This document shows, one piece after another, positions 9,701 through 33,302 of a stretch of DNA of 64,000 nt. Source of the stretch: Squalus acanthias. Its lineage: Eukaryota. Numbering within the stretch: position 1 is the stretch's first letter; every line of letters begins with the position of its first letter. The stretch covers positions 97,342,001 to 97,406,000 of the forward strand of contig CM059431.1 in NCBI GenBank assembly GCA_030390025.1, given 5' to 3'. The notes beneath the pieces are model-generated. The model saw only the letters and a list, made by a program, of their open reading frames with translations. It made no database searches and was not told where the DNA came from. The translations under genes and the position numbers were made by a program.

Positions 9701-12700
9701 GTGTGTAAATCGGGCGTGTGTAAATCGGGCGTGTGTAAATCGGGTGTGTGCTGATCAGGCGTGTGTAAATCGGGTGTGTGTAAATCGGGTGTGTGTAAAT
9801 CGGGTGTGTGTAAATCAGGCGTGTGTAAATCGGGCGTGTGTAAATCGGGCGTGTGTAAATCGGGTGTGTGTAAATCGGGCGTGTGTAAATCGGGCGTGTG
9901 TAAATCGGGCATGTGTAAATCACGCTTGTGTAAATCAGGCGTGTGTAAATCAGGTGTGTGTAAATCAGGCGTGTTTAAATCAGGTGTGTGTAAATCAGGT
10001 GTGTGTAAATCGGGTGTGTGTAAATCAGGCGTGTGTAAATCAGGTGTGTGTAAATCACGCTTGTGTAAATCAGGCGTGTGTAAATCACGCTTGTGTAAAT
10101 CAGGTGTGTGTAAATCACGCTTGTGTAAATCAGGAGTGTGTAAATCAGGCGTGTGTAAATCAGGCGTGTGTAAATCAGGCGTGTGTAAATCACGCTTGTG
10201 TAAATCAGGCGTGTGTAAATCAGGCGTGTGTAAATCACGCTTGTGTAAATCAGGCTTGTGTAAATCAGGCGTGTGTAAATCACGCTTGTGTAAATCAGGG
10301 TGTGTAAATCACGCTTGTTGTAAATCAGGCTTGTGTAAATCGGGCATGTGTAAATCGGGTGTGTGTAAATCGGGTGTGTGTAAATCGGGCGTGTGTAAAT
10401 CAGGCGTGTGCAAATCGGGCTTGTGTAAATCGGGCGTGTGTACATCGGGCGTGTGTAAATCAGCTTGTGTAAATCAGGCGTGTGTAAATCAGCGTGTGTA
10501 AATCAGGCGTGTGTAAATCAGGCGTGTGTAAATCACGCTTGTGTAAATCAGGCGTGTGTAAATCACGCTTGTGTAAATCAGGGCGTATGTAAATCAGCTT
10601 GTGTAAATCAGGCGTGTGTAAATCAGGCGTGTGTAAATCAGGCTTGTGGAAATCACGCTTGTGTAAATCAGGCGTGTGTAAATCACGCTTGTGTAAATCA
10701 TGCTTGTGTAAATCGGCGTGTGTAAATCAGGCGTGTGTAAATCGGGCGTGTGTAAATCACGCTTGTGTAAATCAGGCGTGTGTAAATCACGCTTGTGTAA
10801 ATCAGGCATGTGTAAATCAGGCGTGTGTAAATCACGCTTGTGTAAATCAGGCGTGTGTAAATCAGGCGTGTGTAAATCACGCTTGTGTAAATCAGGCATG
10901 TGTAAATCACGCTTGTGTAAATCATGCTTGTGTAAATCGGGCGTGTGTAAATCAGGTGTGTGTAAATCGGGCGTGTGTAAATCATGCTTGTGTAAATCAG
11001 GCGTGTGTAAATCACGCTTGTGTAAATCAGGCGTGTGTAAATCATGCTTGTGTAAATCAGGCGTGTGTAAATCAGGCTTGTGTAAATCAGGCGTGTGTAA
11101 ATCATGCTTGTGTAAATCAGGCGTGTGTAAATCATGCTTGTGTAAATCAGGCGTGTGTAAATCAGGCGTGTGTAAATCAGGCGTGTGTAAATCACGCTTG
11201 TGTAAATCAGGCGTGTGTAAATCATGCTTGTGTAAATCAGGCGTGTGTAAATCATGCTTGTGTAAATCGGGCGTGTGCAATTCAGGCGTGTGTAAATCGG
11301 GCGTGTGTAAATCGGGCGTGTGTAAATCGGGCGGGTTGTAAATCGGGCGTGTGTAAATCGGGCGTGTGTAAATCGGGCGTGTTTAAATCAGGCGTGTGTA
11401 AATCGGGCGTGTGTAAATCGGGCGTGTGTAAATCGGGCGTGTGCAAATCGGGCGGGTGTAAATTGGGCGTGTGTAAATCGGGCGTGTGCAAATCGGGCGT
11501 GTGTAAATCAGGCGTGTGTAAATCGGGCATGTGTAAATCAGGCGTGTGTAAATCGGGCGGGTATAAATCGGGCATGTGTAAATCGGGCGTGTGTAAATCG
11601 GGCGTGTGTAAATCAGGCGTGTGTAAATCGGGGGGAGTAAATCGGGCGTGTTTAAATTGGGCGGGGTGTAAATCGGGCGTGTTTAAATTGGGCGGGGTGT
11701 AAATCGGGCGTGTGTAAATCGGGCGGGTGTAAATTGGGCGTGTGCTGATCGGGCGTATTTAAATTGGGCGGGGTGTAAATCGGGCGTGTTTAAATTGGGC
11801 GGGGTGTAAATCGGGCGTGTGTAAATCGGGTGTGTGTAAATCGGGCGTGTTTAAATCGGGCGCGTGTAAATCGGGCGTGTGTAAATCGGGCGTGTGTAAA
11901 TCGGGTGTGTGCTGATCAGGCGTGTGTAAATCGGGTGTGTGTAAATCGGGTGTGTGTAAATCGGGCGTGTGTAAATCGGGCGTGTGTAAATCGGGCGTGT
12001 TTAAATCGGGCGTGTGTAAATCGGGCGTGTGTAAATCGGGCGTGTGTAAATCGGGTGTGTGCTGATCAGGCGTGTGTAAATCGGGTGTGTGTAAATCGGG
12101 TGTGTGTAAATCGGGTGTGTGTAAATCAGGCGTGTGTAAATCGGGCGTGTGTAAATCGGGCGTGTGTAAATCGGGTGTGTGTAAATCGGGCGTGTGTAAA
12201 TCGGGCGTGTGTAAATCGGGCGTGTGTAAATCGGGCGTGTGTAAATCGGGCGTGTGTAAATCGGGCGTGTGTAAATCGGGCGTCTGTAAATCGGGCGGGT
12301 TGTAAATCAGGCGTGTGTAAATCAGGTGTGTGTAAATCAGGCGTGTGTAAATCAGGGCGGTTGTAAATCAGGCGTGTGTAAATCAGGCGTGTGTAAATCG
12401 GCGTGTGTAAATCAGGCGTGTGTAAATCGGGCGTGTGTAAATTCGGGCGTGTGTAAATCAGGGTGTGTGTAAATCGGCGTGTGTAAATCAGGCGTGTGTA
12501 AATCGGGCGTGTGTAAATCGGGTGTGTGTAAATCAGGGCGTGTGTAAATCAGGGCGTGTGTAAATCAGGTGTGTGTAAATCCGGCGTGTGTAAATCAGGG
12601 CGGGTGTAAATCGGCGTGTGTAAATCAGGCGTGTGTAAATCAGGCGTGTGTAAATCAGTGTGTGTAAATCTCGCTTGTGTAAATCTGGCGTGTGTAAATC

Positions 12701-15700
12701 AGGCGTGTGTAAATCACGCTTGTGTAAATCAGGCGTGTGTAAATCAGGGCGTGTGTAAATCAGGCGTGTGTAAATCAAGCTTGTGTAAATCAGGTGTGTG
12801 TAAATCACGCTTGTGTAAATCAGGCGTGTGTAAATCAGGCGTGTGTAAATCAGGTGTGTGTAAATCACGCTTGTGTAAATCAGGTGTGTGTAAATCACGC
12901 TTGTGTAAATCAGGCGTGTGTAAATCAAGCTTGTGTAAATCAGGCGTGTGTAAATCAGGCGTGTGTAAATCAGGTGTGTGTAAATCACGCTTGTGTAAAT
13001 CAGGCGTGTGTAAATCATGCTTGTGTAAATCAGGCGTGTGTAAATCAGGCGTGTGTAAATCACGCTTGTGTAAATCAGGTGTGTGTAAATCAGGCGTGTG
13101 TAAATCACGCTTGTGTAAATCATGCTTGTGTAAATCAGGCATGTGTAAATCGGGTGTGTGTAAATCACGCTTGTGTAAATCAGGCGTGTGTAAATCAGGC
13201 GTGTGTAAATCACGCTTGTGTAAATCAGGCTTGTGTAAATCAGGCGTGTGTAAATCACGCTTGTGTAAATCAGGTGTGTGTAAATCACGCTTGTGTAAAT
13301 CATGCTTGTGTAAATCGGGCGTCTGTAAATCGGGCGTGTGTAAATCGGGCGTGTGTAAATCAGGCGTGTGCAAATCGGGCGTGTGTAAATCGGGCGTGTG
13401 TAATTCAGGCATGTGTAAATCGGGCGTGTGTAAATCGGGCGAGTGTAAATCACGCTTGTGTAAATCAGGCGTGTGTAAATCAGGCGTGTGTAAATCAGGC
13501 GTGTGTAAATCAGGCGTGTGTAAATCACGCTTCTGTAAATCAGGCGTGTGTAAATCACGCTTGTGTAAATCAGGCGTGTGTAAATGAGGCGTGTGTAAAT
13601 CAGGCGTGTGTAAATCACGCTTGTGTAAATCAGGCGTGAGTAAATCACACTTGTGTAAATCAGGCGTGTGTAAATCACGCTTGTGTAAATCAGGTGTGTG
13701 TAAATCACGCTTGTGTAAATCATGCTTGTGTAAATCGGGAGTGTGTAAATCAGGCGTGTGTAAATCGGGTGTGTGTAAATCAGGAGTGTGCAAATTGGGC
13801 GTGTGTAAATCGGGCGTGTGTAATTCAGGCGTGTGTAAATCGGGCGTGTGTAAATCGGGCGTGTGTAAATCACGCTTGTGTAAATCAGGCGTGTGTAAAT
13901 CAGGCGTGTGTAAATCAGGCGTGTGTAAATCACGCTTCTGTAAATCAGGCGTGTGTAAATCATGCTTGTGTAAATCAGGCGTGTGTAAATCAGGCGTGTG
14001 TAAATCAGGCGTGTGTAAATCACGCTTGTGTAAATGAGGCGTGTGTAAATCACACTTGTGTAAATCATGCTTGTGTAAATCGGGCGTGTGTAAATCAGGC
14101 GTGTGTAAATCGGGCGTGTGTAAATCACGCTTGTGTAAATCAGGCGTGTGTAAATCACGCTTGTGTAAATCAGGCGTGTGTAAATCAGGCATGTGTAAAT
14201 CACGCTTGTGTAAATCAGGCGTGTGTAAATCAGGCGTGTGTAAATCACGCTTGTGTAAATCAGGCGTGTGTAAATCACGCTTGTGTAAATCATGCTTGTG
14301 TAAATCGGGCGTGTGTATATCACGCTTGTGTAAATCAGGCGTGTGTAAATCGGGCGTGTGTAAATCACGCTTGTGTAAATCAGGCGTGTGTATATCATGC
14401 TTGTGTAAATCATGCTTGTGTAAATCGGGCGTGTGTAAATCAGGTGTGTGTAAATCGGGCGTGTGTAAATCATGCTTGTGTAAATCAGGCATGTGTAAAT
14501 CACGCTTGTGTAAATCGGGCGTGTGTAAATCAGGCGTGTGTAAATCGGGCATGTGTAAATCATGCTTGTGTAAATCGGGCGTGTGTAAATCAGGCGTGTG
14601 TAAATCACGCTTGTGTAAATCATGCTTGTGTAAATCAGGCGTGTGTAAATCTGGCGTGTGTAAATCGGGCTTGTGTAAATCACGCTTGTGTAAATCATGC
14701 TTGTGTAAATCACGCTTGTGTAAATCATGCTTGTGTAAATCACGCTTGTGTAAATCATGCTTGTGTAAATCGGGCGTGTGCAATTCAGGCGTGTGTAAAT
14801 CGGGCGTGTGTAAATCGGGCGTGTGTAAATCGGGCGGGTTGTAAATCGGGCTTGTGTAAATCGGGCGTGTGTAAATCGGGCGTGTTTAAATCAGGCGTGT
14901 GTAAATCGGGCGTGTGTAAATCGGGCGTGTGTAAATCGGGCGTGTGTAAATCGGGCGGGTGTAAATTGGGCGTGTGTAAATCGGGCGTGTGTAAATCGGG
15001 CATGTGTAAATCAGGCGTGTGTAAATCGGGCGGGTATAAATCGGGCATGTGTAAATCGAGCGTGTGTAAATCGGGCGTGTGTAAATCAGGCGTATGTAAA
15101 TCGGGGGGAGTAAATCGGGCGTGTTTAAATTGGGCGGGGTGTAAATCGGGCGTGTTTAAATTGGTCGGGGTGTAAATCGGGCGTGTGTAAATCGGGCGGG
15201 TGTAAATTGGGCGTGTGCTGATCGGGCGTATTTAAATTGGGCGGGGTGTAAATCGGGCGTGTTTAAATTGGGCGGGGTGTAAATCGGGCGTGTGTAAATC
15301 GGGTGTGTGTAAAATGGGCGTGTTTAAATCGGGCGTGTGCAAATCGGGCGTGTGTAAATCGGGCGTGTGTAAATCGGGTGTGTGCTGATCAGGCGTGTGT
15401 AAATTGGGTGTGTGCAAATCGGGTGTGTGTAAATCGGGCGTGTGTAAATCGGGCGTGTGTAAATCGGGCGTGTGTAAATCGGGTGTGTGTAAATCGGGCG
15501 TGTGTGAATCGGGCGGGTGTAAATTGGGCGTGTGCTGATCGGGCGTGTTTAAATTGGGCGTGGTGTAAATCGGGCGTGTTTAAATTGGGCGGGGTGTAAA
15601 TCGGGCGTGTGTAAATCGGGTGTGTGTAAATCAGGTGTGTGTAAATCAGGTGTGTGTAAATCGGGTGTGTGTAAATCAGGCGTGTGTAAATCAGGCGTGT

Positions 15701-18700
15701 GTAAATCGGGCATGTGTAAATCACGCTTGTGTAAATCAGGCGTGTGTAAATCAGGTGTGTGTAAATCAGGCGTGTTTAAATCAGGTGTGTGTAAATCAGG
15801 TGTGTGTAAATCGGGTGTGTGTAAATCAGGCGTGTGTAAATCAGGTGTGTGTAAATCACGCTTGTGTAAATCAGGCGTGTGTAAATCACGCTTGTGTAAA
15901 TCAGGTGTGTGTAAATCACGCTTGTGTAAATCAGGCGTGTGTAAATCAGGCGTGTGTAAATCAGGCGTGTGTAAATCACGCTTGTGTAAATCAGGAGTGT
16001 GTAAATCAGGCGTGTGTAAATCACGCTTGTGTAAATCAGGCTTGGGTAAATCAGCCGTGTGTAAATCACGCTTGTGTAAATCAGGCGTGTGTAAATCACG
16101 CTTGTGTAAATCATGCTTGTGTAAATCGGGCATGTGTAAATCGGGTGTGTGTAAATCGGGTGTGTGTAAATCGGGCGTGTTTAAATCAGGCGTGTGCAAA
16201 TCGGGCGTGTGTAAATCGGGCGTGTGTAAATCGGGCGTGTGTAAATCAGGCGTGTGTAAATCAGGCGTGTGTAAATCAGGCGTGTGTAAATCACGCTTGT
16301 GTAAATCAGGCGTGTGTAAATCACGCTTGTGTAAATCAGGCGTATGTAAATCACACTTGTGTAAATCAGGCGTGTGTAAATCAGGCGTGTGTAAATCAGG
16401 CTTGTGGAAATCACGCTTGTGTAAATCAGGCGTGTGTAAATCACGCTTGTGTAAATCATGCTTGTGTAAATCCGGCGTGTGTAAATCAGGCGTGTGTAAA
16501 TCGGGCGTGTGTAAATCACGCTTGTGTAAATCAGGCGTGTGTAAATCACGCTTGTGTAAATCAGGCATGTGTAAATCAGGCGTGTGTAAATCACGCTTGT
16601 GTAAATCAGGCGTGTGTAAATCAGTCGTGTGTAAATCACGATTGTGTAAATCAGGCGTGTGTAAATCACGCTTGTGTAAATCATGCTTGTGTAAATCGGG
16701 CGTGTGTAAATCAGGCGTGTGTAAATCGGGCGTGTGTAAATCATGCTTGTGTAAATCAGGCGTGTGTAAATCACGCTTGTGTAAATCAGGCGTGTGTAAA
16801 TCATGCTTGTGTAAATCAGGCGTGTGTAAATCATGCTTGTGTAAATCAGGCGTGTGTAAATCATGCATGTGTAAATCAGGCGTGTGTAAATCATGCTTGT
16901 GTAAATCAGGCGTGTGTAAATCATGCTTGTGTAAATCAGGCGTGTGTAAATCACGCTTGTGTAAATCAGGCGTGTGTAAATCATGCTTGTGTAAATCAGG
17001 CGTGTGTAAATCATGCTTGTGTAAATCGGGCGTGTGCAATTCAGGCGTGTGTAAATCGGGCGTGTGTAAATCGGGCGTGTGTAAATCGGGCGGGTTGCAA
17101 ATCGGGCGTGTGTAAATCGGGCGTGTGTAAATCGGGCGTGTTTAAATCAGGCGTGTGTAAATCGGTCGTGTGTAAATCGGGCGTGTGTAAATCGGGCGTG
17201 TGCAAATCGGGCGGGTGTAAATAGGGCGTGTGTAAATCGCGCGTGTGCAAATCGGGCGTGTGTGAATCAGGCGTGTGTAAATCGGGCATGTGTAAATCAG
17301 GCGTGTGTAAATCGGGCGGGTATAAATCAGGCATGTGTAAATCGGGCGTGTGTAAATCGGGCGTGTGTAAATCAGGCGTGTGTAAATCGGGCATGTGTAA
17401 ATCACGCTTGTGTAAATCAGGCGTGTGTAAATCAGGTGTGTGTAAATCAGGCGTGTTTAAATCAGGTGTGTGTAAATCAGGTGTGTGTAAATCGGGTGTG
17501 TGTAAATCAGGCGTGTGTAAATCAGGTGTGTGTAAATCACGCTTGTGTAAATCAGGCGTGTGTAAATCACGCTTGTGTAAATCAGGTGTGTGTAAATCAC
17601 GCTTGTGAAAATCAGGAGTGTGTAAATCAGGCGTGTGTAAATCAGGCGTGTGTAAATCAGGCGTGTGTAAATCACGCTTGTGTAAATCAGGAGTGTGTAA
17701 ATCAGGCGTGTGTAAACCACGCTTGTGTAAATCAGGCTTGTGTAAATCAGCCGTGTGTAAATCACGCTTGTGTAAATCAGGCGTGTGTAAATCACGCTTG
17801 TGTAAATCATGCTTGTGTAAATCGGGCATGTGTAAATCGGGTGTGTGTAAATTGGGTGTGTGTAAATCGGGCGTGTTTAAATCAGGCGTGTGCAAATCGG
17901 GCGTGTGTAAATCAGGCGTGTGTAAATCAGGCGTGTGTAAATCAGGCGTGTGTAAATCAGGCGTGTGTAAATCACGCTTGTGTAAATCAGGCGTGTGTAA
18001 ATCACGCTTGTGTAAATCAGGCGTATGTAAATCACACTTGTGTAAATCAGGCGTGTGTAAATCAGACGTGTGTAAATCAGGCTTGTGGAAATCACGCTTG
18101 TGTAAATCAGGCGTGTGTAAATCACGCTTGTGTAAATCATGCTTGTGTAAATCCGGCGTGTGTAAATCAGGCGTGTGTAAATCGGGCGTGTGTAAATCAC
18201 GCTTGTGTAAATCAGGCGTGTGTAAATCACGTTTGTGTAAATCAGGCATGTGTAAATCAGGCGTGTGTAAATCACGCTTGTGTAAATCAGGCGTGTGTAA
18301 ATCAGTCGTGTGTAAATCACGATTGTGTAAATCAGGCGTGTGTAAATCACGCTTGTGTAAATCATGCTTGTGTAAATCGGGCGTGTGTAAATCAGGCGTG
18401 TGTAAATCGGGCGTGTGTAAATCATGCTTGTGTAAATCAGGCGTGTGTAAATCACGCTTGTGTAAATCAGGCGTGTGTAAATCATGCTTGTGTAAATCAG
18501 GCGTGTGTAATCATGCTTGTGTAAATCAGGCGTGTGTAAATCATGCAAGTGTAATCAGGCGTTGTGTAAATCATGCTTGTGTAAATCAGGCTTGTGTAAA
18601 TCATGCTTGTGTAAATCAGGCGTGTGTAAATCACGCTTGTGTAAATCAGGCGTGTGTAAATCATGCTTGTGTAAATCAGGCGTGTGTAAATCATGCTTGT

Positions 18701-19487
18701 GTAAATCGGGCGTGTGTAATCAGGCGTGTGTAAATCGGGCGTGTGTAAATCGGGCGTGTGTAAATCGGGCGGGTTGTAAATCGGGCGTGTGTAAATCGGG
18801 CGTGTGTAAATCGGGCGTGTTTAAATCAGGCGTGTGTAAATCGGGCGTGTGTAAATCGGGCGTGTGTAAATCGGGCGTGTGTAAATCGGGCGGGTGTAAA
18901 TTGGGCGTGTGTAAATCGGGCGTGTGCAAATCGGGCGTGTGTAAATCAGGCGTGTGTAAATCGGGCATGTGTAAATCAGGCGTGTGTAAATCGGGCGGGT
19001 ATAAATCAGGCATGTGTAAATCGGGCGTGTGTAAATCGGGCGTGTGTAAATCAGGCGTGTGTAAATCGGGGGGAGTAAATCGGGCGTGTTTAAATTGGGC
19101 GGGGTGTAAATCGGGCGTGTTTAAATTGGGCGGGGTGTAAATCGGGCGTGTGTAAATCGGGCGGGTGTAAATTGGGCGTGTGCTGATCGGGCGTATTTAA
19201 ATTGGGCGGGGTGTAAATCGGGCGTGTTTAAATTGGGCGGGGTGTAAATCGGGCGTGTGTAAATCGGGTGTGTGTAAATCGGGCGTGTTTAAATCGGGCG
19301 TGTGTAAATCGGGCGTGTGTAAATCGGGCGTGTGTAAATCGGGTGTGTGTAAATCAGGCGTGTGTAAATCGGGTGTGTGTAAATCGGGTGTGTGTAAATC
19401 GGGCGTGTGTAAATCGGGCGTGTGTAAATCGGGCGTGTGTAAATCGGGCGTGTGTAAATCGGGCGTGTGTAAATCGGGCGTGTGTAA
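3712..19487. repeat. Satellite, 15-bp unit (tgtaaatcRggcgtg / tgtaaatcacgcttg) with higher-order structure
   Basis: About 15.8 kb of tandem 15-mers; 5-aa periodic ORFs; recurring variant blocks; runs into the assembly gap. Confidence 0.98.
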
Positions 19488-19987
19488 NNNNNNNNNNNNN
19501 NNNNNNNNNNNNNNNNNNNNNNNNNNNNNNNNNNNNNNNNNNNNNNNNNNNNNNNNNNNNNNNNNNNNNNNNNNNNNNNNNNNNNNNNNNNNNNNNNNNN
19601 NNNNNNNNNNNNNNNNNNNNNNNNNNNNNNNNNNNNNNNNNNNNNNNNNNNNNNNNNNNNNNNNNNNNNNNNNNNNNNNNNNNNNNNNNNNNNNNNNNNN
19701 NNNNNNNNNNNNNNNNNNNNNNNNNNNNNNNNNNNNNNNNNNNNNNNNNNNNNNNNNNNNNNNNNNNNNNNNNNNNNNNNNNNNNNNNNNNNNNNNNNNN
19801 NNNNNNNNNNNNNNNNNNNNNNNNNNNNNNNNNNNNNNNNNNNNNNNNNNNNNNNNNNNNNNNNNNNNNNNNNNNNNNNNNNNNNNNNNNNNNNNNNNNN
19901 NNNNNNNNNNNNNNNNNNNNNNNNNNNNNNNNNNNNNNNNNNNNNNNNNNNNNNNNNNNNNNNNNNNNNNNNNNNNNNNNNNNNNNN
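19488..19987. other. Assembly gap (500 N)
   Basis: Run of N. Confidence 1.
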
Positions 19988-20547
19988 TTTTTTTCGGGTT
20001 TGGCGCTCAAATTTCTTGTATAGGGTGATCTCCGTTTTAATGGGTTTTGGGGATACTCGTAACTGTCTGAGTACCTGTTAATACTTTTCCCATTGTTTAA
20101 TCGGTCGGTGTTCTCCCTGGAGGGGTTTTGGGGCTTCCAAATGTTTTCTGTAACTACCCGCTAACGGCTCTCTCATCGTAGAGTCGTTGGGATTTTGCAT
20201 ATTAATGTCTTTGGATGGGTTCTTGATTACTTGGTACAATAGCCCTTATTCACACCTGGGAGACCGATTTCAGTATTTATGTGTATACTGCAAACCCATG
20301 ATGTCTAGTGTATTATCTTAAATGTGCTGAGTCTTGATCGAACTTGCACAAATGTTTATTGGAACGCCATCTTGTCTGCCTGTCGATGAATCTAGAATGT
20401 TCTGCCACGAGGCGTGGCGGCCATTTTACAGGCTGCTTGTGTCCACTTTGAAAACCTGACAGCATTCTGCTGAAATAAAAGCTGTTTGAACGAAACTATG
20501 TGTTTTTCTCCTTATTAATGAAATCGCGATATATTGCGAATTCTACA
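19988..20547 (-). repeat. 3' LTR (partial; remainder lost in the gap)
   Basis: Nearly identical to ~32750-33302 and ends in the same gcgaattctaca terminus. Confidence 0.95.
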
Positions 20548-20994: not shown

Positions 20995-23343
20995 TTACAC
21001 GGTGCTTTCATCGTGCACGCGCACGTAACGTTCTCGCCACTCTCCCATGTTTTCGTGCTTGGTGAGGCGTTTGCCTCTCTTACAATGTACGACCAATCGG
21101 TACACTACAATAAAACTTGGCATACAACTAAAATGTGGGAGGCTATTCTGATCCATGAAGGCACTTCAATATTGGTGAACAGATTCCACCACGGTGGAAT
21201 TACTATGTCCAGAATGTCTGTCCCTATTTCGACAGTTTTCTGCTCTAGTGTGTAAAAATGTTTTTGTGACACCGCGACGGCTTTCAAAAGCTTGGTGAGG
21301 TGTTCAGGGAGAGGGGGAATGAGGTATCCGAAATGCTCGACGAATCGCTGCAAGTCGGTGAAATTCTCTTTTACTGTTAGATGAACAGTGGATGGTTCAG
21401 GGATGGTGACAATTCGCTGTTGTGCTACTTGAACTTCCGCCCTGGGTTTGAAACAGAAACTGCTGTCACTCACCGGACACCGGCTACGGTTTCCATGCTG
21501 GTATGTTGCGCTGCAGTGGTAACACAATATGTTCCACCCCCGATGTATGCTACCTGCGGAGGCACATGATCTGTGCCATTGCCTCCATGGTGCAATTCAT
21601 GGACTTGGCGCCAGCCGTTCTGAACCCGCACTGTGGTGTTAAAAAGGCATTCAAGTGCTGGGGACACAGTATTATGTGTGCTCCCCTGCCACGACAACCA
21701 GCGAGATCTGTACCTGTCATCGTTTGCTCCCAGCGGATGACGTAGGGTGGAACCGCTGCATAGCGAATGTGGGCTCCCCCCTGAATGACACCAATGTTCT
21801 CTACCCGATACACCGGGGCGGGCTTTGCTGTGTCGCCCAAAACCGGCATACGTAATACTATACCCATGATAGTATGGTTTGATCGTCCGCAGTCCACGGG
21901 GACTGGGTATGCTTCTGAAGCTAGCCTGAGCTGGCACGGGCTTAATGCGTTCTGAAAAGGGTGGAGCGCCCGCAGGTGTTTGTTACTTATCCAGGACGGG
22001 ACCAAACCTTGTTTTAAATCCTCCAAATTACTGCGGCCCTCGCCCAGTAACCACGCCCCGTAAAGCACGCACACCTCGTTCTGCGCAGCTTGATCGGATG
22101 CATTCCGATCTTCCCTAATCAGGGCATTTACCGTTCTCGCGTGTTTCTCTAGCTCTGCTATAATTTCCTTTAAATGGAGAGTCATGGCTTGGTCCTCGTG
22201 TAAACCCGACCCAACCACTTTATTTTCATCTGTGAGAATGTCTTTTAATTGCGTTTTTAAGCCATTAATCTGGGTCTGCAGCTCCACGCTGTCTAGAGCG
22301 TTGACCACAGATGTACCTGTGTTGAAAGCAGTGAACGCGTCGTTCACAACACCCCTTCTTTGTCTCCCCACCTGATCAAAGACTTCATGTGGTGCGGTGT
22401 ACAAACTTGTTTTATCAATTTCCGCGAAATCAAATTCGTAAAATTGTCTGAACATCTTGGTCAACAGGACCTGATAAAACTGTTCCGTCTTTTTGGGGCA
22501 CCACTCTGGTAACCGCACCTCGGTGAGATTTAAAATCACCGAGGCCACCGCGTAATGTGCCCCCTGAAATAGTATCTGGTCTGTGGGGACCAGTACCAAA
22601 CCATTCCCGGGTCCCTTACTAGTTTTAGGGCACCCTTCCTCTTTAGCTAGAACCACCGGAATCGTGGGCGGGGCTTTGCGTGGGCGCGTAATGAGTTCAG
22701 TGGCATTTACCGGGATCGAAGAGTATGGGGCTCCGCACCCCCTGGTGCTCGCATCCCACCTCATCCCCTGTCCGTTATCCTGCCATTGATTAATGAAAAA
22801 TATGGAGATGCCTTTGGGGCAAGCGTACTTTGACCCCCACATACATACATAAATTCCCTCATCCGGTTCCCACCATTTGTCCCAACAGACTCTCACTTGT
22901 CCGTTTGTCCCCGTAATTGTCCGATGGGTATTATTACCCAGTCGTTCCCACTCGACCGAAGAGTTCCTCATGTTTTTGCTCAGCTTTTGCAGCCACCACC
23001 ATCGGCTCAATGGGACATTCCCACTACAAGTCAAACAAATCCGTTTGCCGACGGTGACGCTGATCCTGGGTGCGATGATCCTTACTTTGGGGCACATTAA
23101 AGAAGTCTCTTGGTAGGCAAACCCCGATGTGCTGGAATACTCCGTTGAGTTCGTTCCCAGCCATCCTGGCCACCTTCCCTTGTGGAAATAGGTGCTGGTC
23201 TCCTCAGCCTCCCGTCTTCCGGTCCCATCCACCGCGATGGGGGCCGTGTCCCCGGAGCATCCAAACACCACGACATCCTTGGTGCGGCCTCGATAGGCCA
23301 ATCCACATCCGATTGCCGCGAGCAATACTAGAATTCGTTCCAT
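20995..23343 (-). pseudogene. env: env: class I fusion glycoprotein (F-like) with N-terminal Ig-like domain; C-terminal part split by about three frameshifts
   Basis: Signal peptide MERILVLLAAIGCGLA from ATG 23343; Ig-like motifs; RQRR/GVVNDAFTAFNTGTSVVNAL cleavage site plus fusion peptide; heptad repeat; Cys-rich region; continues through the frames of ORFs 21470-21937 and 21105-21527 to a TM segment (WIRIASHILVVCQV..FIVVY) and basic tail ending TAA at ~20995. Confidence 0.85.
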
Positions 23344-23643
23344 CCTTCCTTGGTTCCTGTGATCAGATAGAATGAGGTAGCCAGCCTCGCAAGAGTCTCT
23401 GGCTTTTGTGAAGGGTGAGCGGGTCCCCTGACCTCGCCTCACGTAAACTTCAATGTTCGCTGAATAAACTTTAACTAAACCTATCTCTAAAGCTCCCATC
23501 ATTTTACCATTTTCTGTTAAAATTAAACTACAAACTTAACCTGACTTAAAACTATAAACTTATTCTTAACCTTAAACTATAAACTTAGAAACTTATCCTA
23601 AACTTATTACTGTACAGCGCCGCCCGTTCCCAGGGCGGCCCCT

Positions 23644-26600
23644 TTAAATTCTGAGAAGGCTGCTGCGAGCTCTTCCCGACGGTGGGAGGGCACTGACCCC
23701 TTCCTTTGATCTGCCGCAGCCTGTTGCTGCTGCGATGGGACTGGGCCCTACCTGGGCTGCCTTAACCTTAAGCCTGCACCTTGGGGCAGTCTGGGGACAT
23801 GACCACATCTTCCTGGGCTGGGGTGCCCGACTTGACCTACGAGGAGTTGTCGGGGGCAGGAATCCCAGGACCGACGGACCGGGTTCCGAGACTTCCACCG
23901 GGACGACCTGTGGCCCCATCACAGTCGCTGGCTCCGTCTCCCCTGACTCCGCCTCCCTGACCTCGGGACCTGCAGCTTGTGGTACCGCCCTGCTCGGCCC
24001 AGCAGGCGAACCTCCACTCGCAGTCCCTACCTCCCTCGAGGGCAGGACGTTCAAGGCGGGCGGCTCGGGCTCTGAGGTTTCCACCGTCACGCCCTGTGGT
24101 CCCACAGTGGCTGGCTCCGCCTCCCCTAGCTCCTCCCTCCTGTGTTCGGGACCTGCAGCCTGGGTGTCCACCCTGTGTGGATCTCTATCTGCAGCCCCTG
24201 TCCTCCCTATACCTGAATTGGGGGCGACCCTTGCGTTCCCCGATTCCCACTCGTCCTCATCACTATCCTCATCTGACTCGAGTTCCCGGAACTCTCCCTC
24301 ATCTGACTCCCAACCCCACAAAAATGTTTCACAATTTTCCAGGATGTCTCCTTCCCTGATGCAGGCTGCTTTGCCTGCTTGTGTGCCCTGTGGTCCTGCC
24401 TGGGGCTGCGAGTCCCCACTCGCAGGTTTTGCCCCTGTGGTTTTCCCTTGTGCACCTGGCTTGTACAGTTTGCACTGGTTTACGTGGAACCACTTAGTGC
24501 GCCGAGGTACTTTTACGGCGTATACCATGGGACTCGCTTTATCTACAATGTTGTAGGGTCCCATATACAGTGGTTCCAGACTCCCTACTCTGGCGTAGTT
24601 TCTGACCATAACCTGGTCTCCTACTTCCCACTCCCGCGTTTTGCGGGGTTCCAGCAACAGGCGATTGCCCTGATGCTGCCTTCCCATGTTCCCAGCCGCC
24701 TGCTCATACACCTGCTTCAGGCGCTCCAAGAGGGTCTGGGCGAACTTGTCCCTGCTTATCTCTTGGAGCTGACCCTCAGTGAGCACCGGCGCTAGCACAT
24801 GGGTGGGGGTTCGCATGATCCTCCCAGTCATCACTTCGTGCGGGGAATACCCCGTACCTTTTGACTGACTGGCCCGGACCCCCATGAGGACTAAAGACAG
24901 AACCTCCGCCCATTTTTGGGGCGAGTTCCTAGTCTCTTTCCTCAATTTCTCCTTCAGGGTCCGGTTCATGCGTTCAACAATCCCGGATGACTGGGGATTG
25001 TGCGCTACGTGCCATTTCCCTTCAATGCCCAAAAGCATGAGGGTGTTCTGCATCACCTGGCCGGTGAAATGACTCCCTTGGTCTGACTCCACAAAACGGG
25101 GGTGTCCCCACCGCGAGAACACTTCCCGGACCAAGATTTTTGCAGTACCCAGTGCCGTAGCTGTTCGACAGGGGAAGGCTTCCACCCATTTGGAAAACAC
25201 ATCCACCAAGACGAGGCAGTATTTATAACCTCCCTGGGTGGTGGGCAGGGGCCCTATATAGTCGATCTGTATCGACTGCCATGGTCCCTCTACCCTTCTT
25301 ACGTGCCCCATGGGCACTTTCCTTTTCTGGGGGTCTGGGTTGTTTGCAGCACACACGAGACAGCTTGCACAGAACTCGCGGACCTGTTCCCTGAGCCCCG
25401 GTCACCATCCCGCTTGCTCTACCCGTTGCCAGGTAACCTCGGGCCCGGGGTGCCCTGCCCCTGGTCCCTCGTGAGCCAACTGGAGGAATTCCCTCCTGTG
25501 CTGCTGCGGCACAACCCACTGCTCCTCGCGGAACAGCATGCCTTCCTTAACTGAGAGGGTTGCCGTACTGTACGGACCCTCTACTTGCTTCCCCTCAGCA
25601 ATGGTTTTTAGGACTGCTTTTAGGGCGGGATCCTGGTTCTGGACGGTCTTAAGGTTGTAGAATTCGCAATATATCGCGATTTTATTAATAAGGAGAAAAC
25701 ACAGAGTTTCGTTCAAACAGCTTTTATTTCAGCAGAATGCTGCCAGGTTTAAAGTGGACACAAGCAGCCTGTAAAATGGCCGCCGCACCTCGTGACAGAA
25801 CATTCTAGACTTTTCAACAGGCAGACAAGATGGCGTTCCAATAAACATTTGTGCAAGATCGATTAAGAGTCAGCACAGTGAAGATAATACACGAGACATT
25901 ATGGGTTTGCAGTATACACATAAATACTGAAATCGGTCTCCCAGGTACAAATGAAAGCCATTGTACCGAGTAATCAAGGGCCCATCCAAAAGACATTAAT
26001 ATGTAAAATCCCAACGACTCTACGATGAGAGAGCCGTTAGCAGGTAGTTATACAAAACACTTGGAAGCCCCACAACCCCTCCAGGGAAAACACCGACCGA
26101 TTTAACAATGGGAGAAATATTAACAGGTACTCAGACATTTACGAGTAGCCCCGAAACCCATTAAGAACGGAGATCACCCATACAAGACATTTGAGCGCCA
26201 GACCCTAAACAAAAGAATGGACATTAAGGTTGGGCGGGAAACGGAAGATTTTGCACTATAATTGCAGGCTCCAAACCATCCATCTTTCTCTTATCCGATC
26301 GACTCTTATCATCGTGGCTGCTCCTGTGCTCTTGTTTCGTAACCTCGTGGCTGCTCCTGTGTACTCGTAGTTGGGCTCCTGCTTGCCTGTTGCCTCTTTG
26401 AAAAGGACTGTTGAACTTTCTGATCCGTTCGGATCTACCTCGTGTCGCGTAACGAAGACCTATGTTGGTAACTGGCAGCGGAACCAAAGGCCCGAGATGA
26501 GATGAGATGAGATGAGAAGAGAGGAAGACCATATCCATCGCCACGGTCAGTAAATCCCGACCGCGCCTGTAGGTCGAATAGCCAAGTTTTCTTTGCCAGG

Positions 26601-29600
26601 AAGACTTCTTCGAACTTGCAAGGAAACATATCGTATCGATGATATTGACAACTGTGCTCGAAAAGTACCTGTTAAACCAACCAACACAGGTCTTCATCAC
26701 AGCAGACGTTCCAGCCTGCTAGCCGGAGCAGCAGAAGCAAGTAAACAAGTGGGACCAGGAGATCTCCTGACCGACACGTGGGTGCTGCGGTGAAAAACAT
26801 CCGATCAGCTATTCGGAATTTCTCCGAGTTATCACGAGTGGTGAGCATGAGTCTCAAAATCCTACGAATCTAGTTTAGGATAGATATTGATAGGGGAGGG
26901 TTTAAGGATTAAGGATATTTGTAATGTGTGCCCCTATTTACTATGTGCCGTTCGTTCCTCGTTTCCCTAAGATCGACTATATAACTGCTTGTAAGATTGT
27001 ACTGTCATTAATCTGTGCTTATGACATGTATTTCATAATCTTAAGTATCATGCAATAAAGATTTTCCATTTCGTACCATTCAACCGAGTCTACATGAGTT
27101 TCATCTCCATTACTGCTCTCGCATCTAAGTCCAGTGTCTAGAACCGTAAGGGCGAGTGATTCGAACCACTCACAGGTGTGTCTAGTGTTCCCAGACTGGC
27201 TGGAGACCAGAACAGGCAACAAGGCCTAGACCCGCACTGACATACAGGCTGCACAGAGCCGCGTGAATCTCACAGGCTGCGAGACACGCAGGGTCAGAAT
27301 CCCTTACAAGGTCTAGGGGCAATGCTACCCTGGAGTTCCCGGGATTCCCGTCCCTGCCTTGGATCGCTGCCATGGGTCTGGTCCCATAGGGGTCCCAGAA
27401 AATGCCGTTGCGGGCACCTTCCCTGGCTAGCGCATCCGCCTGCTGGTTGCCCTCCCCACGGGGCTCTGTGGAGGAGTGAGCTTTCACCTTATGGATGAAA
27501 ATCTCTCCTTCCTCCCCAACTGCTGCTAGGATCTTTTCCAGCAAGGGCTTCACCGTTAAAGGTCGTCCGTCCGCGGAGGTGTATCCACGGCGGGACCAAA
27601 TGGCCAGGTATTCCGTACACGAATTGCATGTGAACATACTGTCCGAGCAAATCGTGTATGGGGTTGGGAAAATGTCTGGGTGGGTAACGACGTACACCAC
27701 TGCAGACAGCTCAGCCTGCTGCGCGCTCATGGTGCTAGGGAGCTTGATCGCCAGGGCAAGGTTTGCCGCAGGGTCATAAACTCCACACCCTGTGAGTCGT
27801 TCGCCAGCAGATACTGTGCTGGAACCATCAACATAAATCTCGCGCCCAGTGGGATGTATCCCGGCCCGCAAACCTATGTTGACGTCCCACACCCCTTCCA
27901 CCGAACACCGGTGGGCTGTACCAGGGTATACCAAATTGGCCGCAAGCCTGGGCTCGCAAAGACCTTTAACTCTAAGATCCATCTGGGAAAGAAGAAGGGT
28001 CCAGCGCGCAATGCGCACGCTGCTTACGGTCCCATCTTTAATTCTCCCATCTAGAAGCATCTTAGTGGGTGTATGATGGGTGAGGAGAGTGATGGGAGAG
28101 AGCCCTGTGAAGATCGCTGATCTTTTCACAGCCCAATGCGTGGCTAAAAGGTGCCTTTCGCAGTTGGAAAAACTTCTCTCCACATCCGTTAACACCCTGG
28201 TCGAATAGACAACCGGCCTCAGCTTGCCGTGGCGCTCTTGGAGCAGCACAGCGCTCAAGCTGTCCCCGCTGGCAGCTACCTCCAGGAAAAACTCCTTCCC
28301 CCCATCTATGGCCCCTAAGGCTGGCGCGGTCTGCAGATCCCTTTTTAACTTCTCGAAGGCTGCTTGGCAGCCCTCGTCCCAAGACCACTCCACTCCCTTA
28401 TGGAGGAGTCGGAGTAGCGGCGCCGCTGTGGCCGCATAGTCTTCGATAAAATCCCTGCAGTAACCCGTCAGTCCCAAGAAGGACCTCACACCCCTTATGG
28501 TGTTGGGAATCGGTAACTCTTGCACCGACTCCCTCCTAGCTTTATCTATGGCTCTTTCCCCAGCGCGAATGGTCAGCCCCAGGAATTTTACTTCCTGCTG
28601 ACCGATACGTGCTTTCTTAGGGTTTACTTTAAAACCCTTTCTCGCTAGCAGCTCCAATAACTCGGCCAGCAGTGGTCCATGCTCCTCCCTTGAATCCGTA
28701 AATAGGAGCAAATCATCCACGTACTGCACTATCTGATTGGGCTGACTAAACTCCTTTAAACTTCCTGCCATACACTGATGGAAAATACTGGGGCTGTTGT
28801 GGAAACCCTGTGGCAGACAGTTCCATGTGTACTGTTGTCCTTTGAAAGTAAAGGCAAACTTGTACTGGTCCTCTCGCCGCAGCGGGATGGACCAAAAACC
28901 GTTCGAGATATCCAGCACCGTGAACGTGGTCGCGGACGCTGGGATACTCCCTATTAGGTCAGCAACTGCTGCTACCGTGGGCGCGCAGGCGGGAATGTTA
29001 CTGTTGAGGACTCTGTAGTCCACCGTGGCCCTCCACGAATTATCCGGCTTCCTAACCGGCCATAATGGGGAGTTCACGTGTGTGGCTATCGGCCTCAACA
29101 CGCCCTGCTGCACCAAGGAGGACATTGCTGTCTCCATATCGGGTTCTGCTTCTTTGGGGAAGTTATACTGCTTTTGGGGCCGGGTCATGGGGTCCCCATC
29201 TACGCTGACCTCAAACCCGGTAACCCTCCCACAATCGTGCTTGTGGGTTGCAAACGCGTGCATATTATCTGACACGTACGTTTGCATGTCCGTTGGGACA
29301 ACCGCGACCATAAGCCCGAGGTCGTAGCCTCCGGATGGCTGCATGGTACACAGGACCCCTGTTTCTTCCTCCCCCGGAATTACCACTACCTCGCCTTCTT
29401 CACTCTTAGCCCCCCAGAGACAGTGATTTCTGAGGTCCACGAGGATCCCGTGTCCTGATAGGAGATCGGACCCAAGGATACCTCTTCCACCCCCCTCCTG
29501 CCATTCCATCAGTATGCACTTCCACTTGATGTGGAGTGCTCCTAAATGAATGGATAGCGGAAGGGAGAACGCGCCAGCCTGTTCTTTTCCCGTGAACCCC

Positions 29601-29788
29601 GCAAATGTGAATGGGACCTTGGTAGATAGCGGTGAGTCAAAAGGGCTATCTGTATGAATCACGGTGCAAGAAGCTCCCGTGTCCAACAAATAACTACCCT
29701 TCTGTTTCTCTACCTCCATTTCCACCAGGGGTCGCTTCCACGCATCATAGCTGAGCGGACACAGGTAGACGGGCTGCGCGGGCTCTAG
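23644..29788 (-). pseudogene. pol: pol (protease, RT, tether, RNase H, integrase), interrupted by a solo LTR and one premature stop
   Basis: LLDTGAS protease; LPQGFHNSP and YVDD RT; degenerate RH (FLEVAASG); RH (YVDGS, AQQAEL, SDS, KVKAH, GNQQADALA); IN HHCC (HEGPGAGH..CLVC) and DDE (QIDYIG, SDQG, VERMN); TGA at 25402-25404 within expected WWPG. Confidence 0.95.
25656..27308 (+). mobile_element. Solo LTR (1653 bp) of a sister subfamily, inserted antisense into pol
   Basis: TGTAG...TTACA termini, AGGT duplicated at 25652-25655 and 27309-27312; removal restores frame ALPLDL-KTVQNQDP; homologous to but distinct from the host LTRs; near-identical to 62584-64000. Confidence 0.95.
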
Positions 29789-31594
29789 TCATTGGGTACT
29801 GTTAGACGGGCCTGTGGCACCTGCGGGGCTGGTAGCAACCGCCACTTTTCCATGTGCACTCATGAAGTTGCGCATGGCTCCCAACACTGTTTCGAGGTCG
29901 TCGGGAGGGGTGGGTGCACTAGCTTCCCTAACAGAGACAGGCATCTGGGCTCGGGCTGCGGGATTTTTATCCCTGGAATCCTTCCAAGGGTTCCTGCAGT
30001 TCTTGCGCCAATGCCCTGTCCTCCCACACCCGTAACAAGCATTACTTGCCTGCGGGGCGCGGTTACCCTCCTGATGCCACTCCTTTTGAGCCGGGGCTGC
30101 GGGTTGTACCTCATGTACCTTTCCCTTAAGGGGACGTGTTCCCATACCCCTGATATTACGGTATCCTACCGTGAGTCGATTTAAGACCGACTCCTCCGTA
30201 ATGTTGGGGTCAGTGGGATCAAACCACGCTTTTGCCTGCTCTCTGACGGCTGGCAAACTGTTGGCTACTATACACCTGAGCCAATGAGTTAAACCGACGC
30301 CTTCCACATCGTCGCGCTCTGGCGCACCTGGGCAGCTGCGCTGATATACTGGCCACAGCCTGTCGGCAAAAACCTTCGGGGGTTCTCCCTCCATCTGCAC
30401 TGTCTGCCCCACTCTAACAAACGGACCTTCATCGTCCGTCCCCAATACTTCTAGGACCTCATTTTTTAGTGCCTCATATTTCTTGGTTCCTCTCTTGCTC
30501 TCGTCCGAGAGACACTGAAGGATCGAACTACCTAATGAAAATAACAGCATCTTTGCTGTTTCCCCATCGTCGCAGCCGTTAATGGCTGCGGTTTGCTCAA
30601 CTTCCCTGAAATGTACGGAAGGGTCGTCTGCCTCGGTCAGCTTCCGTACGTGACTTATCATAATCCTCAGCTGGTGTGAGCTGTGAGGCAACACAAGCTG
30701 GTTGAGGAGATCCCCTTGTTCCCCACCGTTTCCGTTTGGGCCCCTTTTTATACCCGTAACCGGACACAACGGTCCCTTTTCCACTTCTCCCTCAGTGGGC
30801 TCTTTCGTTTCTTCTACTACTTCCTCCCTTACCCAGGTTTCCGAATAGCTGGGTGGCGCGGAGGGCGTAGTGGCTAATACTTCCTTTGCTTTATTGGGTG
30901 GGAATTTCTGAAACTCCTCATCTACTAGTGGCTGGTGTGCTGACGGACTGATAAGGCACACCATGCCGTGCGCCTTGTTCACGGTCCTTTTAAGGTGCTC
31001 TATCTCCTTTTGGCAGACGCTATGATCGGCCCCCTGAAACTTATCCTCAAGGGCCATCTTATATGCCGCCCTAACCCCCGTTTAGCTCTCTTCCTGGGCT
31101 TTTATTTGGGCAGCTTGGCGGGCACATCGTTCCTTTAGTCTGCCCTCACTTAACTTTGCCTCAGTGACCTGGCACTCGAGGTAATCTATTTTTGCTTTAT
31201 GGTGACTGGTGATTTCCTGGCGTTCTCGGTGCAACGCACTTAAATTCCTAATGAGCAACTCCCCTCCAGAGACCTTCTCGTCCATTTCCTCCTCTAAATG
31301 CCTGATCCGAGCTGTTTGCGCTGTAATGACCTGGTTTGAAATCTGGACTTGTCTCTTATAACACATTAACCAGACCGCTTTCTCGACTGTCTTTTTATGT
31401 TCCTTACTATCTGTCCACCTCTCGGCTGCCTCTAGTGGACTCTTATCCGCTAACAGGTCACTTTTTCATTTCTTAGTTAAATTTACCTTTCCGAACACAT
31501 AATCTGCTATCTTTTCCTGCATGACATTTCGTACATTCACACCAAAGTCTAACACACTACCCTCTCGCTGCCAGTGTCCTGCCACGGTCGCCAT
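29789..31594 (-). pseudogene. gag: gag (about 600 codons, two in-frame stops)
   Basis: One frame from ATG 31594 through ORFs 31082-31366 and 29789-31057, stops at 31466-31468 (TGA) and 31082-31084 (TAA); coiled-coil-like N-terminal part; zinc knuckle CYGCGRTGHWRKNC; true start uncertain. Confidence 0.85.
31576..31593 (-). promoter_or_regulatory. Primer binding site, tRNA-Arg(TCG)-like
   Basis: TGGCGACCGTGGCAGGAC 5 nt inside the 5' LTR boundary; complementary, with one mismatch, to the vertebrate tRNA-Arg(TCG) 3' end as I recall it (GTCCTGCCGCGGTCG-CCA). Confidence 0.75.
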
Positions 31595-31598
31595 TTTC

Positions 31599-33302
31599 TG
31601 TAAGGGTTTTCTCTCTGAACCTGTGAGATTCGTGTGGCTCTGTGCAGCCTGGATGCTAGTGCGGGTTTAGGCCTTGTTGCCTGTTCTGGTCTCCAGCCAG
31701 TCTGGGAGCACTAGACACCTGTGAGTGGTTCGACCCACTCGCCCTTACGGTTCTGACACTGGACTTAGATGCGACAGCAGTAATGGAGATAAAACTCAGG
31801 TAGACCCGGTTGAATGGTACGAAATGAAAAATCTTTATTGCATATTATTCAAGATTACGAAATACATGTCATAAGCACAGATTAATGACAGTACAATCTT
31901 ACACGCAGTTATGTAACTAATTTCAGGGAAACGAGGAACGAACGACACATCGTAAATGGGGGCACACATTACAATTATCCTTAAAACTTAAACCCTCCCC
32001 TATCAATATCTGCCCTAAGCTAGATTTGTAGGATCGAGACTCATGCTCACCACTCGTGATAATTCGGAGAATTCCGAAAACTCTGATCGGATGTTTTTCA
32101 CCGCAGCACCCACGTGTCGATCTGTACCCCACTTGTTTACTCGTTTCTGCTCCGGCTAGCAGGCTGGAACGTCTGCTGTCATGAAGATCTGTGTTGTCCT
32201 CGGAGTTCCGACTCTACTCAAAAAAGAGTCTTCCTGTGCCCTCGCACTGATGCGATAGAATTCGAAGAATAGTCTTCCTGGCAGTTCTGTAAAACTCGAA
32301 GAAGTCTTCCTGGCAAGGAAAGTGTCTATTCGACCTACAGGCGCGGTCGGAGCTTACTGACCGTGGCGATACGTATGGTCTTCTTCTCTTCTCATCTCAT
32401 CTCATCTCATCTCATCTCATCTCATCTCATCTCGGGCCTTCGGTTCCAACACCGTTTACCGACTTCTCGGGATGGTGCGCCCGCTCCAAGGCTTCAGAGC
32501 CCAGTTCCACACAGATCTTCGCGGCACGCCACGAGGTAGATCCGAGCGGATCGTAAAGTTCAACAGTCTTTAAAAGCTACAAGAGGCAGAGACACGAGGC
32601 AGGCGGCAAGGAGTCGAAAGGATAAGAGCAACAGGAGCAGCCACGAGGATAAACGCCAGCAAGATAAGAGAAAGATGGACGGTTGGAGCTTGCAGTTATA
32701 GTGCAAAATCTTCCTTTTTCCCGCCCAACCTTAATGTCTTTTCTTTTGTTAGGGTTTGGCGCTCAAATTTCTTGTATAGGGTGATCTCCGTTTTAATGGG
32801 TTTCGGGGATACTCATAACTGTCTGAGTACCTGTTAATACTTTTCCCATTGTTTAATCGGTCGGTGTTCTCCCTGGAGGGGTTTTGGGGCTTCCAAATGT
32901 TTTCTGTAACTACCCGCTAACGGCTCTCTCATCGTAGAGTCGTTGGGATTTTGCATATTAATGTTTTTGGATGGGTTCTTGATTACTTGGTACAATAGCC
33001 CTTATTCGCACCTGGGAGACCGATTTCAGTATTTATGTGTATACTGCAAACCCATGATGTCTCGTGTATTATCTTAAATGTGCTGAGTCTTGATCGATCT
33101 TGCACAAATGTTTATTGGAACGCCATCTTGTCTGCCTGTCGAAGAATCTAGAATGTTCTGCCACGAGGCGTGGCGGCCATTTTACAGGCTGCTTGTGTCC
33201 ACTTTGAAAACCTGACAGCATTCTGCTGAAATAAAAGCGTTTGAACGAAACTATGTGTTTTTCTCCTTATTAATGAAATCGCGATATATTGCGAATTCTA
33301 CA
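31599..33302 (-). repeat. 5' LTR (1704 bp)
   Basis: TG...CA termini; internal (ctcat)n microsatellite ~32391-32432; minus-strand AATAAA near 31835; abuts the 22-bp satellite. Confidence 0.95.

Follow-up and report, generated by a model that had tools for sequence, protein, structure and literature searches.

The envelope (Env) protein of an endogenous retrovirus (ERV) in Squalus acanthias probably carries an immunoglobulin (Ig)-like domain ahead of its fusion machinery. The window analyzed is a stretch of 64,000 nucleotides (GenBank assembly GCA_030390025.1, contig CM059431.1, forward-strand positions 97,342,001 to 97,406,000), and all coordinates given here are positions within it. It contains a minus-strand provirus with gag, a frame for protease (PR), reverse transcriptase (RT) and RNase H, integrase and env; the env open reading frame (ORF; 21550–23502, minus strand, 650 residues) lies between integrase and the 3′ long terminal repeat (LTR). 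The Ig fold is assigned to residues 138–237, partly on the strength of a predicted model. On balance, we favor the reading that this segment is a real V-type (IgV) domain that forms the membrane-distal, N-terminal module of Env in a cartilaginous-fish ERV family, where it would most likely act in cis as a receptor-binding domain (RBD).

An earlier note, made from the letters of the window, had pointed to Ig hallmarks at 22792–23091, and translation bears these out. The reverse strand of the interval encodes the noted 100 residues (138–237). The B-strand cysteine, Cys159 (the second Cys of CLTC), is followed at +11 by Trp170, and the motif DEGIYVC (214–220) ends in Cys220. Both the distance of 61 residues between the two cysteines and the position of the Trp agree with expectation for the immunoglobulin superfamily (IgSF), which is ∼55–75 residues for the former and 10–15 residues after the first Cys for the latter. 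When the Env protein was shuffled 20,000 times, the pattern C-x10-W...D-x-G-x-Y-x-C never arose. The segment includes two N-glycosylation sequons, at residues 180 and 190. Its placement between a signal peptide and a fusion module also stands: a signal-peptide-like stretch (54–72) precedes it, and a furin-type site, RQRR (380–383), follows. This site is the sole R-x-[KR]-R in the ORF and leads into a Gly/Ala/Val-rich peptide, GVVNDAFTAFNTGTSVVNAL.

The Cys-Trp-DxGxYxC arrangement is common to the segment and to vertebrate V-type domains of the IgSF (antibody VL/VH, T-cell receptor (TCR) V, CRTAM, CD300/TREM and the CEACAM N-domain). The two also share a stretch resembling framework region 1 (FR1), “SVTVGKRICLTC”, an FR2-like “WWLQK” and, in the low-confidence model, V-type topology. 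The Env segment differs from these domains in its low identity to them (just 10–19% in the fold matches), in its extra Cys residues (156, 206 and 228) and in that no J-like FGxG motif was seen in it; assignment to a family within the IgSF is impossible.

Pfam, structure prediction and Foldseek, which the earlier note had proposed as checks, gave V-type answers throughout, each below significance. The Pfam family Ig_3 matched the window protein at E = 0.044 and five of the six family members at E ≤ 1 (best E = 0.001). When the segment was compared with PDB sequences by phmmer, 195 matches were obtained at E ≤ 10 (best E = 0.016). The best 60 of these 195 are all IgSF proteins, comprising 59 antibody fragments (mostly light-chain V domains) and JAM-A, and their alignments to the segment keep register through the FR1-like stretch, the Cys, the Trp and DxGxYxC. 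A profile built from six members matched eight PDB entries, all of them IgSF (including CRTAM, DIPs and the IgLONs OBCAM and neurotrimin), at E = 0.018–0.44. Neighbors in a language-model search, at 0.89–0.91, carry the ig, V-set and I-set families, which is weak evidence by the method's own figures. In an AF2 model of residues 132–245 (pLDDT 56.5, pTM 0.47), strands A–F are formed. Foldseek searches of the PDB with this model gave E values of 0.017–0.046 and TM scores of about 0.4–0.5, and 46 of the 47 listed rows are entries with antibody, TCR, CD8, VNAR, nanobody or embigin chains. A wide search with VIA-align, which is independent of Foldseek, returned mostly V-type rows (TCR, VNAR, TREM-1, CD300, CTLA-4, pIgR, NKp44 and PD-1). 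Foldseek against viral models (BFVD) was uninformative (best E = 1.1e-3); the other matches comprised tail proteins of phages and a single Ig-type receptor from a poxvirus, with no retroviral RBD. The RBD of the murine leukemia virus (MLV) type was absent from both the fold and the sequence matches of the segment.

Ig segments are present and in frame in skate and shark homologues, where they are as conserved as their flanks; the earlier note had asked about other copies. An exhaustive phmmer search with env found 37 proteins at E ≤ 0.001. Twenty of the hits were examined, and the 15 that were identified to organism are all from sharks; the closest named homologues are from skate (75% and 72% identity). 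Much of the Ig segment is covered by six of the 37 (P0002, P0003, P0006, P0010, P0013 and P0020), to which a profile search added P0041, and it was found in skate, sawshark and whale-shark proteins as well as in three further proteins. Identity to the window is 53–71% in the five homologues that cover the whole Ig domain. The corresponding values for homologues covering most of each flank are 44–76% (the preceding N-terminal module), 45–71% (linker) and 57–72% (F2-like part). The B-strand Cys and the Trp are invariant in six of six aligned members, the F-strand Cys is kept in all five that cover it, and [DE]-x-G-[IM]-Y-x-C is retained, as DEGIYMC, EQGIYVC, DQGIYLC or DEGMYVC, in every homologue that reaches this far.

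The env sequence is multi-copy, with 83 to 1,340 contigs per run (four runs, four organisms) at identities from <90% to >99%. Contig depth over the Ig segment is like that over the rest of env in these runs, and none of the seven length changes listed from their contigs falls within 22792–23091. Rare contigs (one each per run, with a small share of the depth) skip 22617–22831 or 22884–23033, and we read these as deleted minor copies. Variants were listed for 40 of 224 places in env, and seven were removed (six in the out-of-frame 3′ part, one upstream of the ORF). Codon position 3 accounts for 22 of the remaining 33 well-supported variants (P about 9e-5), and 19 cause no amino-acid change; the excess at position 3 indicates that env as a whole diversified under coding constraint. 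Between 45 and 78% of sampled 31-letter env words (21100–23540) occur in 20 run rows from nine studies and six organisms, and 25 to 491 contigs in each of the four runs are >99% alike. The occurrence of near-identical copies in several organisms points to recent activity or spread.

Downstream of the Ig segment, the protein resembles the paramyxovirus fusion (F) protein. A profile of 26 members of the Env family matched paramyxovirus F0 in the PDB (6mjz_A, E = 3.6e-4; 8tqk_A, E = 3.9e-4), the next matches having E ≥ 0.26. Profile positions 274–482 align with F0 257–475 (∼210 residues, head and stalk), and a collinear weak stretch spans the cleavage site. The CX6CC motif was found in none of nine sequences checked (three window frames and six relatives), and this Env therefore lacks a transmembrane subunit (TM) of the gamma type. 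The F0 match and the missing CX6CC relate it to the F proteins of Mononegavirales over canonical retroviral Env. Two relatives that are intact, P0017 and P0042, each carry one hydrophobic anchor at the C-terminus. Paramyxovirus and pneumovirus F share with the shark Env the collinear order of an F2-like strand-helix segment, basic cleavage site, fusion peptide, heptad repeat, head, stalk repeat and anchor, but ahead of F2 the shark Env carries an additional stretch of about 230 residues, of which the Ig module is part.

Lokiretrovirus Env is described in the part of Wang and Han (2020; PMC7947760) available to us as a class I, furin-cleaved protein of retrovirus-like elements of lower vertebrates with likeness to F, and the shark Env has the same features. 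Both contain xPGPxxG[IVL]xL at the F2-like start and, past the heptad repeat, G-x-[IV]-P-x-[YW]-[LI]; direct homology of the window Env to loki Env is drawn only from these motifs, which were compared by eye. In the window Env, the first motif reads KGPGNGLVL (298–306) and follows about 230 residues that are extra relative to loki Env. Loki Env matches the Pfam F family PF00523 at E = 2.2e-7 in the same source, whereas none of 26 members of the window Env family did so at E ≤ 10. The fusogen that the earlier note called F-like therefore keeps that description at the level of the profile and not of PF00523, and it appears, from sequence comparison, to be more distant from F than is the published loki Env. 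The two also differ in the Ig module. As far as the available part of PMC7947760 extends, it is absent from 13 published loki Env N-termini (of 24 consensus elements), in which the F2-like part comes directly after the signal peptide; the comparison covers 15 Envs of the 24 elements, 13 with an N-terminus, and the amphibian consensus Envs are not among them. The module is thus not an already known feature of these loki Envs, an outcome that the earlier note had allowed for. No teleost protein was among the 37 phmmer matches to the window Env. In the genome table of the same paper, Callorhinchus, two Chiloscyllium and Rhincodon lack the asterisk borne by positive genomes, and its main text, in the portion available, mentions neither immunoglobulin nor cartilaginous fishes.

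The design itself has a precedent in gamma-type Env, and the earlier statement that no retroviral Env of this kind was known has to be withdrawn. According to the accessible portion of Hötzel (bioRxiv 10.1101/2024.03.17.585361), the N-terminal RBD (RBD-C) of Env of the MLV and feline leukemia virus (FeLV) type is a modified IgV domain, and in one group of mammalian Envs a SIRP-like IgV domain, canonical and with its disulfide, was acquired from the host. In gamma-type Env, as described there, an independently folding N-terminal IgV-like domain and a Pro-rich linker precede the fusion part, which is also the layout predicted for the shark Env. The shark linker, which had been called Pro/Thr-rich, is Pro-rich only moderately (8 Pro and 5 Thr in 64 residues, 241–304; 6 Pro in 34, 267–300). 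The canonical B–F disulfide is kept in the SIRP-like class, as that source has it, and the canonical B–F Cys pair is also found in the shark domain. The fusion machine sets the shark protein apart, being F-like F2/F1 without CX6CC or a gamma-type TM. So does the matter of ancestry: SIRP is the clear donor behind the SIRP-like RBD, according to the part of the source available to us, whereas none can be named for the shark domain. A literature search found no description of an Ig-like domain on loki or F-like retroviral Env; what looks new is the pairing of an F-like retroviral Env with an IgV-like module at its N-terminus.

The N-terminus of the wider Env family is variable and modular, since its subgroups carry an Ig-like module, a Cys-rich non-Ig module or none. 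A profile search extended to P0042, a frog protein of 757 residues that stands for 14 member sequences, and to relatives of it from Logan. In Envs of the frog type (P0042, P0039 and P0045), a signal peptide is followed by a V-set-like domain without the two canonical Cys, a Pro/Thr-rich linker and the motif CP...GP..GL; the V-set signal has E = 0.045 (P0039), and a CEACAM1-like stretch has E = 0.15. The intact shark Env P0017, an “Ig-like domain-containing protein” in UniRef, gave 52 PDB matches at E ≤ 1, all to antibody VH or butyrophilin (best E = 0.0043). A third shark subgroup (P0011, P0018 and P0027) has a Cys-rich N-terminal domain without an Ig match; that of P0011 found just six weak, unrelated matches in the PDB. 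Comparison of the Ig profile with the frog-type domain, P0017 and P0011 by hhalign gave probabilities of 0.3–0.8%, which neither demonstrates nor excludes homology between the subgroup modules.

The earlier note had taken the domain to be captured from the host. Its Ig V/I type is supported by the concordant, weak tests; the capture is unproven, because no host donor gene can be detected. A nearest host IgSF gene was sought and none was present among the 37 matches of the exhaustive search or the six of the Ig-profile search, the best IgSF match having E = 0.016–0.018. Derivation from a host IgSF gene is plausible and, on general grounds, likely. We tentatively suggest, as a possibility somewhat short of an even chance, that the F-like (loki-type) Envs of cartilaginous fishes and frogs repeatedly gained different N-terminal modules, at least two or three of them separately captured host IgV domains and one a non-Ig Cys-rich domain, and so became self-sufficient entry machines. 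Alternatively, the Ig-like module could be an old viral component, not taken from a vertebrate host, whose sequence changed separately in every lineage and which the lokiretroviruses of teleosts and lampreys have lost. That three distant subgroups (the window type, shark P0017 and the frog type) are weakly Ig-like ahead of the linker and CP...GP..GL speaks for this, as does the undetected host donor. However, the profile comparison between the subgroup domains detects no homology (probabilities of 0.3% and 0.8%, E = 0.07–0.22), the frog type lacks both canonical Cys, and the 13 published loki Envs, in the portion of PMC7947760 that we could consult, start their F2-like part right behind the signal peptide. 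The distribution among subgroups fits several separate gains equally well, and we regard an old component as less likely than not.

Several results weigh against the reading of the segment as an IgV module on an F-like Env. No single Ig test is significant alone. Ig_3 scores of 14.7, 17.0 and 18.6 bits fall short of the curated threshold of 30 bits, Foldseek found nothing in the PDB at E ≤ 0.001, and the best Z of VIA-align, 5.8, is within the range (Z < 8) that the tool's own warning describes as common. The AF2 model is of low confidence and draws the expected G strand as a low-confidence helix, and AF2 on the 292-residue N-terminal part (10-row alignment) gave an unusable result (pLDDT 33.5) that was left out of the fold search. 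The five variants listed in the Ig segment (two synonymous, three not) are too few to address selection at the level of the domain, and PF00523 matched none of the 26 family members scanned. Finally, this copy is unable to make a membrane-anchored Env. Its ORF is broken near the 3′ end, a defect that the earlier note overlooked; tblastn with relatives shows that at about 21571, 21503 and 21111 the 3′ part passes into frames −1, −3 and −2, which puts the membrane anchor out of frame. Contigs from the four public runs differ by one base in length at 21571, 21503 and 21111/21114, and because they differ exactly there, the frame breaks are private to this copy or to its assembly.

The subthreshold Ig scores, the low AF2 confidence and the unformed last strand would also be expected if the segment were some other Cys- and Trp-rich β domain with a fortuitous match to the motif, and Env of the P0011 type does have a CxxC-containing, Cys-rich N-terminal domain without an Ig match. 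We consider such a fold improbable, because independent tests (hidden Markov model, pairwise sequence, language model and fold search) concur in likening the segment to V domains in motif, spacing and register, and because the hallmark pattern was never produced by shuffling and persists in all covering homologues. Many concordant, individually weak results make an Ig V/I-type domain probable.

If the segment is an IgV domain, its most likely role, by analogy with gamma-type Env, is receptor binding. Paramyxoviruses and pneumoviruses place attachment on a separate protein (HN, H or G), which usually triggers F. The predicted order in the shark Env is signal peptide, 65-residue module, Ig domain, partly Pro-rich linker, F2-like segment, furin site, fusion peptide, heptad repeat, head, stalk repeat and anchor, with a fusion machine that would be of the paramyxovirus-F or lokiretrovirus-Env type. 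The Ig module, carried on a flexible linker above an F-like trimer, would then be an attachment domain in cis, and its binding to a receptor could position or trigger the trimer, much as the IgV-like RBD and proline-rich region do in gamma-type Env. An attachment role is suggested by the position of the module, by the lack of any other attachment gene in the retrovirus and by the gamma-type parallel.

The earlier note had offered an immune decoy as the other option, and nothing favors it over attachment. Large DNA viruses have captured IgSF domains for immune modulation, and the weak sequence neighbors of the shark domain include immune receptors (CRTAM) and V domains of the antibody and TCR type. 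The module could, for instance, resemble an IgSF ligand of the host and thereby bind inhibitory receptors, or it could shield the fusion machine. Against this, domain and fusogen are parts of one protein, with the domain placed membrane-distally, where retroviral RBDs sit; no particular host ligand or receptor family stands out (best E = 0.016–0.018); and an F-like Env still needs an attachment function, for which the provirus has no other candidate gene. An evasion or decoy module is, in our estimation, a poor prospect. The least credible alternative, and a very improbable one, is an ORF that belongs to the host or to a chimeric gene model. Public annotations do join Env pieces to host genes (ZNF-like P0006, Niban-like P0005), but the ORF lies between integrase and one LTR of a 98.2%-identical pair and the sequence is multi-copy.

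The features of the provirus are listed in Table 1. Among solved structures, the PR-RT frame is closest to gammaretroviral RT (E = 1.1e-69) and to the PR-RT of foamy virus (E = 2.9e-64), matches that speak neither for nor against a place among the lokiretroviruses, and its single ORF encodes the dual RNase H (tether and RNase H) common to all retroviruses. One of the two defects of this provirus is the inverted LTR and leader fragment that separates RNase H from integrase within pol. A second element, nested or rearranged, may account for this fragment, as may an artefact of assembly. Integrase has a C-terminal extension of ∼270 residues (23644–24500, minus strand), rich in Pro, Glu, Ser and Gly, that matched no Pfam family and includes an internal repeat (23850–23992 and 24036–24175, 75% identity). 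Arrays of short tandem repeats flank both sides of the provirus (12533–19487 and 33160–40000+, with a spacing of 22 bases in the right-hand array), which places it inside satellite DNA; the left junction is concealed by the assembly gap at 19488–19987.

Within Env, the module that precedes the Ig domain is 65 residues long (YGCSG...GRWPGWLGSNST.YSS..GF.Y) and occupies this position in all close homologues; frog-type Env is without it. It matched no Pfam family, and a language-model search gave no usable match. A bacterial repeat protein of 5,014 residues, P0035, matched residues 74–142 in 16 stretches (E = 9.6e-6) and was rejected as a compositional artefact of its Gly/Asp/Ala-rich repeat. The sawshark gene models P0005 and P0006, in which env fragments are fused to a Niban-like gene and a zinc-finger gene, are probably mis-joined around ERV insertions. 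In the skate protein P0002, compared with 21114–22147, the whole F1-like head region is missing and the heptad repeat is joined directly to the stalk, as a result of either a deleted copy or a spliced prediction.

Table 1. Features of the provirus and of its Env in the window
Feature	Position	Strand	Basis and remarks
5′ LTR, part matching the 3′ LTR	32744..33302	−	98.2% identity over 560 bases to 19988–20547; LTR extends further inward
gag region, two stop-to-stop frames	29789..31465	−	Weak zf-CCHC in 29789–31081 (E = 0.0016, below cut-off); upstream of pro-pol
Protease, RT, tether (degenerate RNase H), RNase H	27182..29788	−	Pfam RVP 2e-4, RVT_1 5.3e-36, RT_RNaseH_2 1.8e-20, RNase_H 1.5e-20
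Inverted, diverged copy of LTR and leader	25655..27276	+	87–91% identity, in reverse orientation, to 31620–33303 and 19988–20547
Integrase	23644..25716	−	Pfam rve 1.2e-15; N-terminal piece 25402–25716 in other frame; low-complexity C-terminal tail
Probable Env start and signal-peptide-like stretch (residues 54–72), MERILVLLAAIGCGLAYRG	23287..23343	−	Hydrophobic; aligns with N-termini of homologues
Conserved N-terminal module (residues 73–137), no assigned fold	23092..23286	−	44–76% identity to six homologues
Probable Ig V-type domain (residues 138–240; finding covers 138–237)	22783..23091	−	Hallmark residues, Ig_3, PDB matches, AF2 model, homologues
Linker (residues 241–304); contains two Cys, a single N-glycosylation sequon and a stretch moderately rich in Pro	22591..22782	−	Composition; 45–71% identity to homologues
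F2-like segment (residues 305–383), ending at furin-type site RQRR	22354..22590	−	Conserved in family; collinear with F0 cleavage region (weak stretch)
Fusion peptide, putative long heptad-repeat helix and F1-like head domains (residues 384–650), to first frame break	21553..22353	−	F0 profile match; homologues
Rest of env (stalk repeat, membrane anchor, tail), in shifted frames here	21007..21571	−	tblastn of P0004, P0002 and P0017
3′ LTR	19988..20547	−	Direct repeat of 5′ LTR; cut by assembly gap 19488–19987

These data widen the range of F-like retroviral Envs to sharks and skates, from which none was reported in the 2020 survey (PMC7947760), as far as the available part of that paper goes. 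If the reading of the segment as an in-cis attachment domain is right, an F-like Env with a built-in Ig module would show how such a fusogen becomes self-sufficient, and it would be a second independent case, beside gamma-type Env, of the layout of IgV-like RBD, Pro-rich linker and fusion machine. Repeated gain, if it took place, would mean that modular RBD capture occurred in another retroviral Env class, unrelated to the first, and that the loki-like retroviruses reach into Chondrichthyes. The swapping of receptor-binding modules by retroviruses can be studied in this family, whose N-terminal modules are Ig-like, Cys-rich without an Ig match, or lacking.

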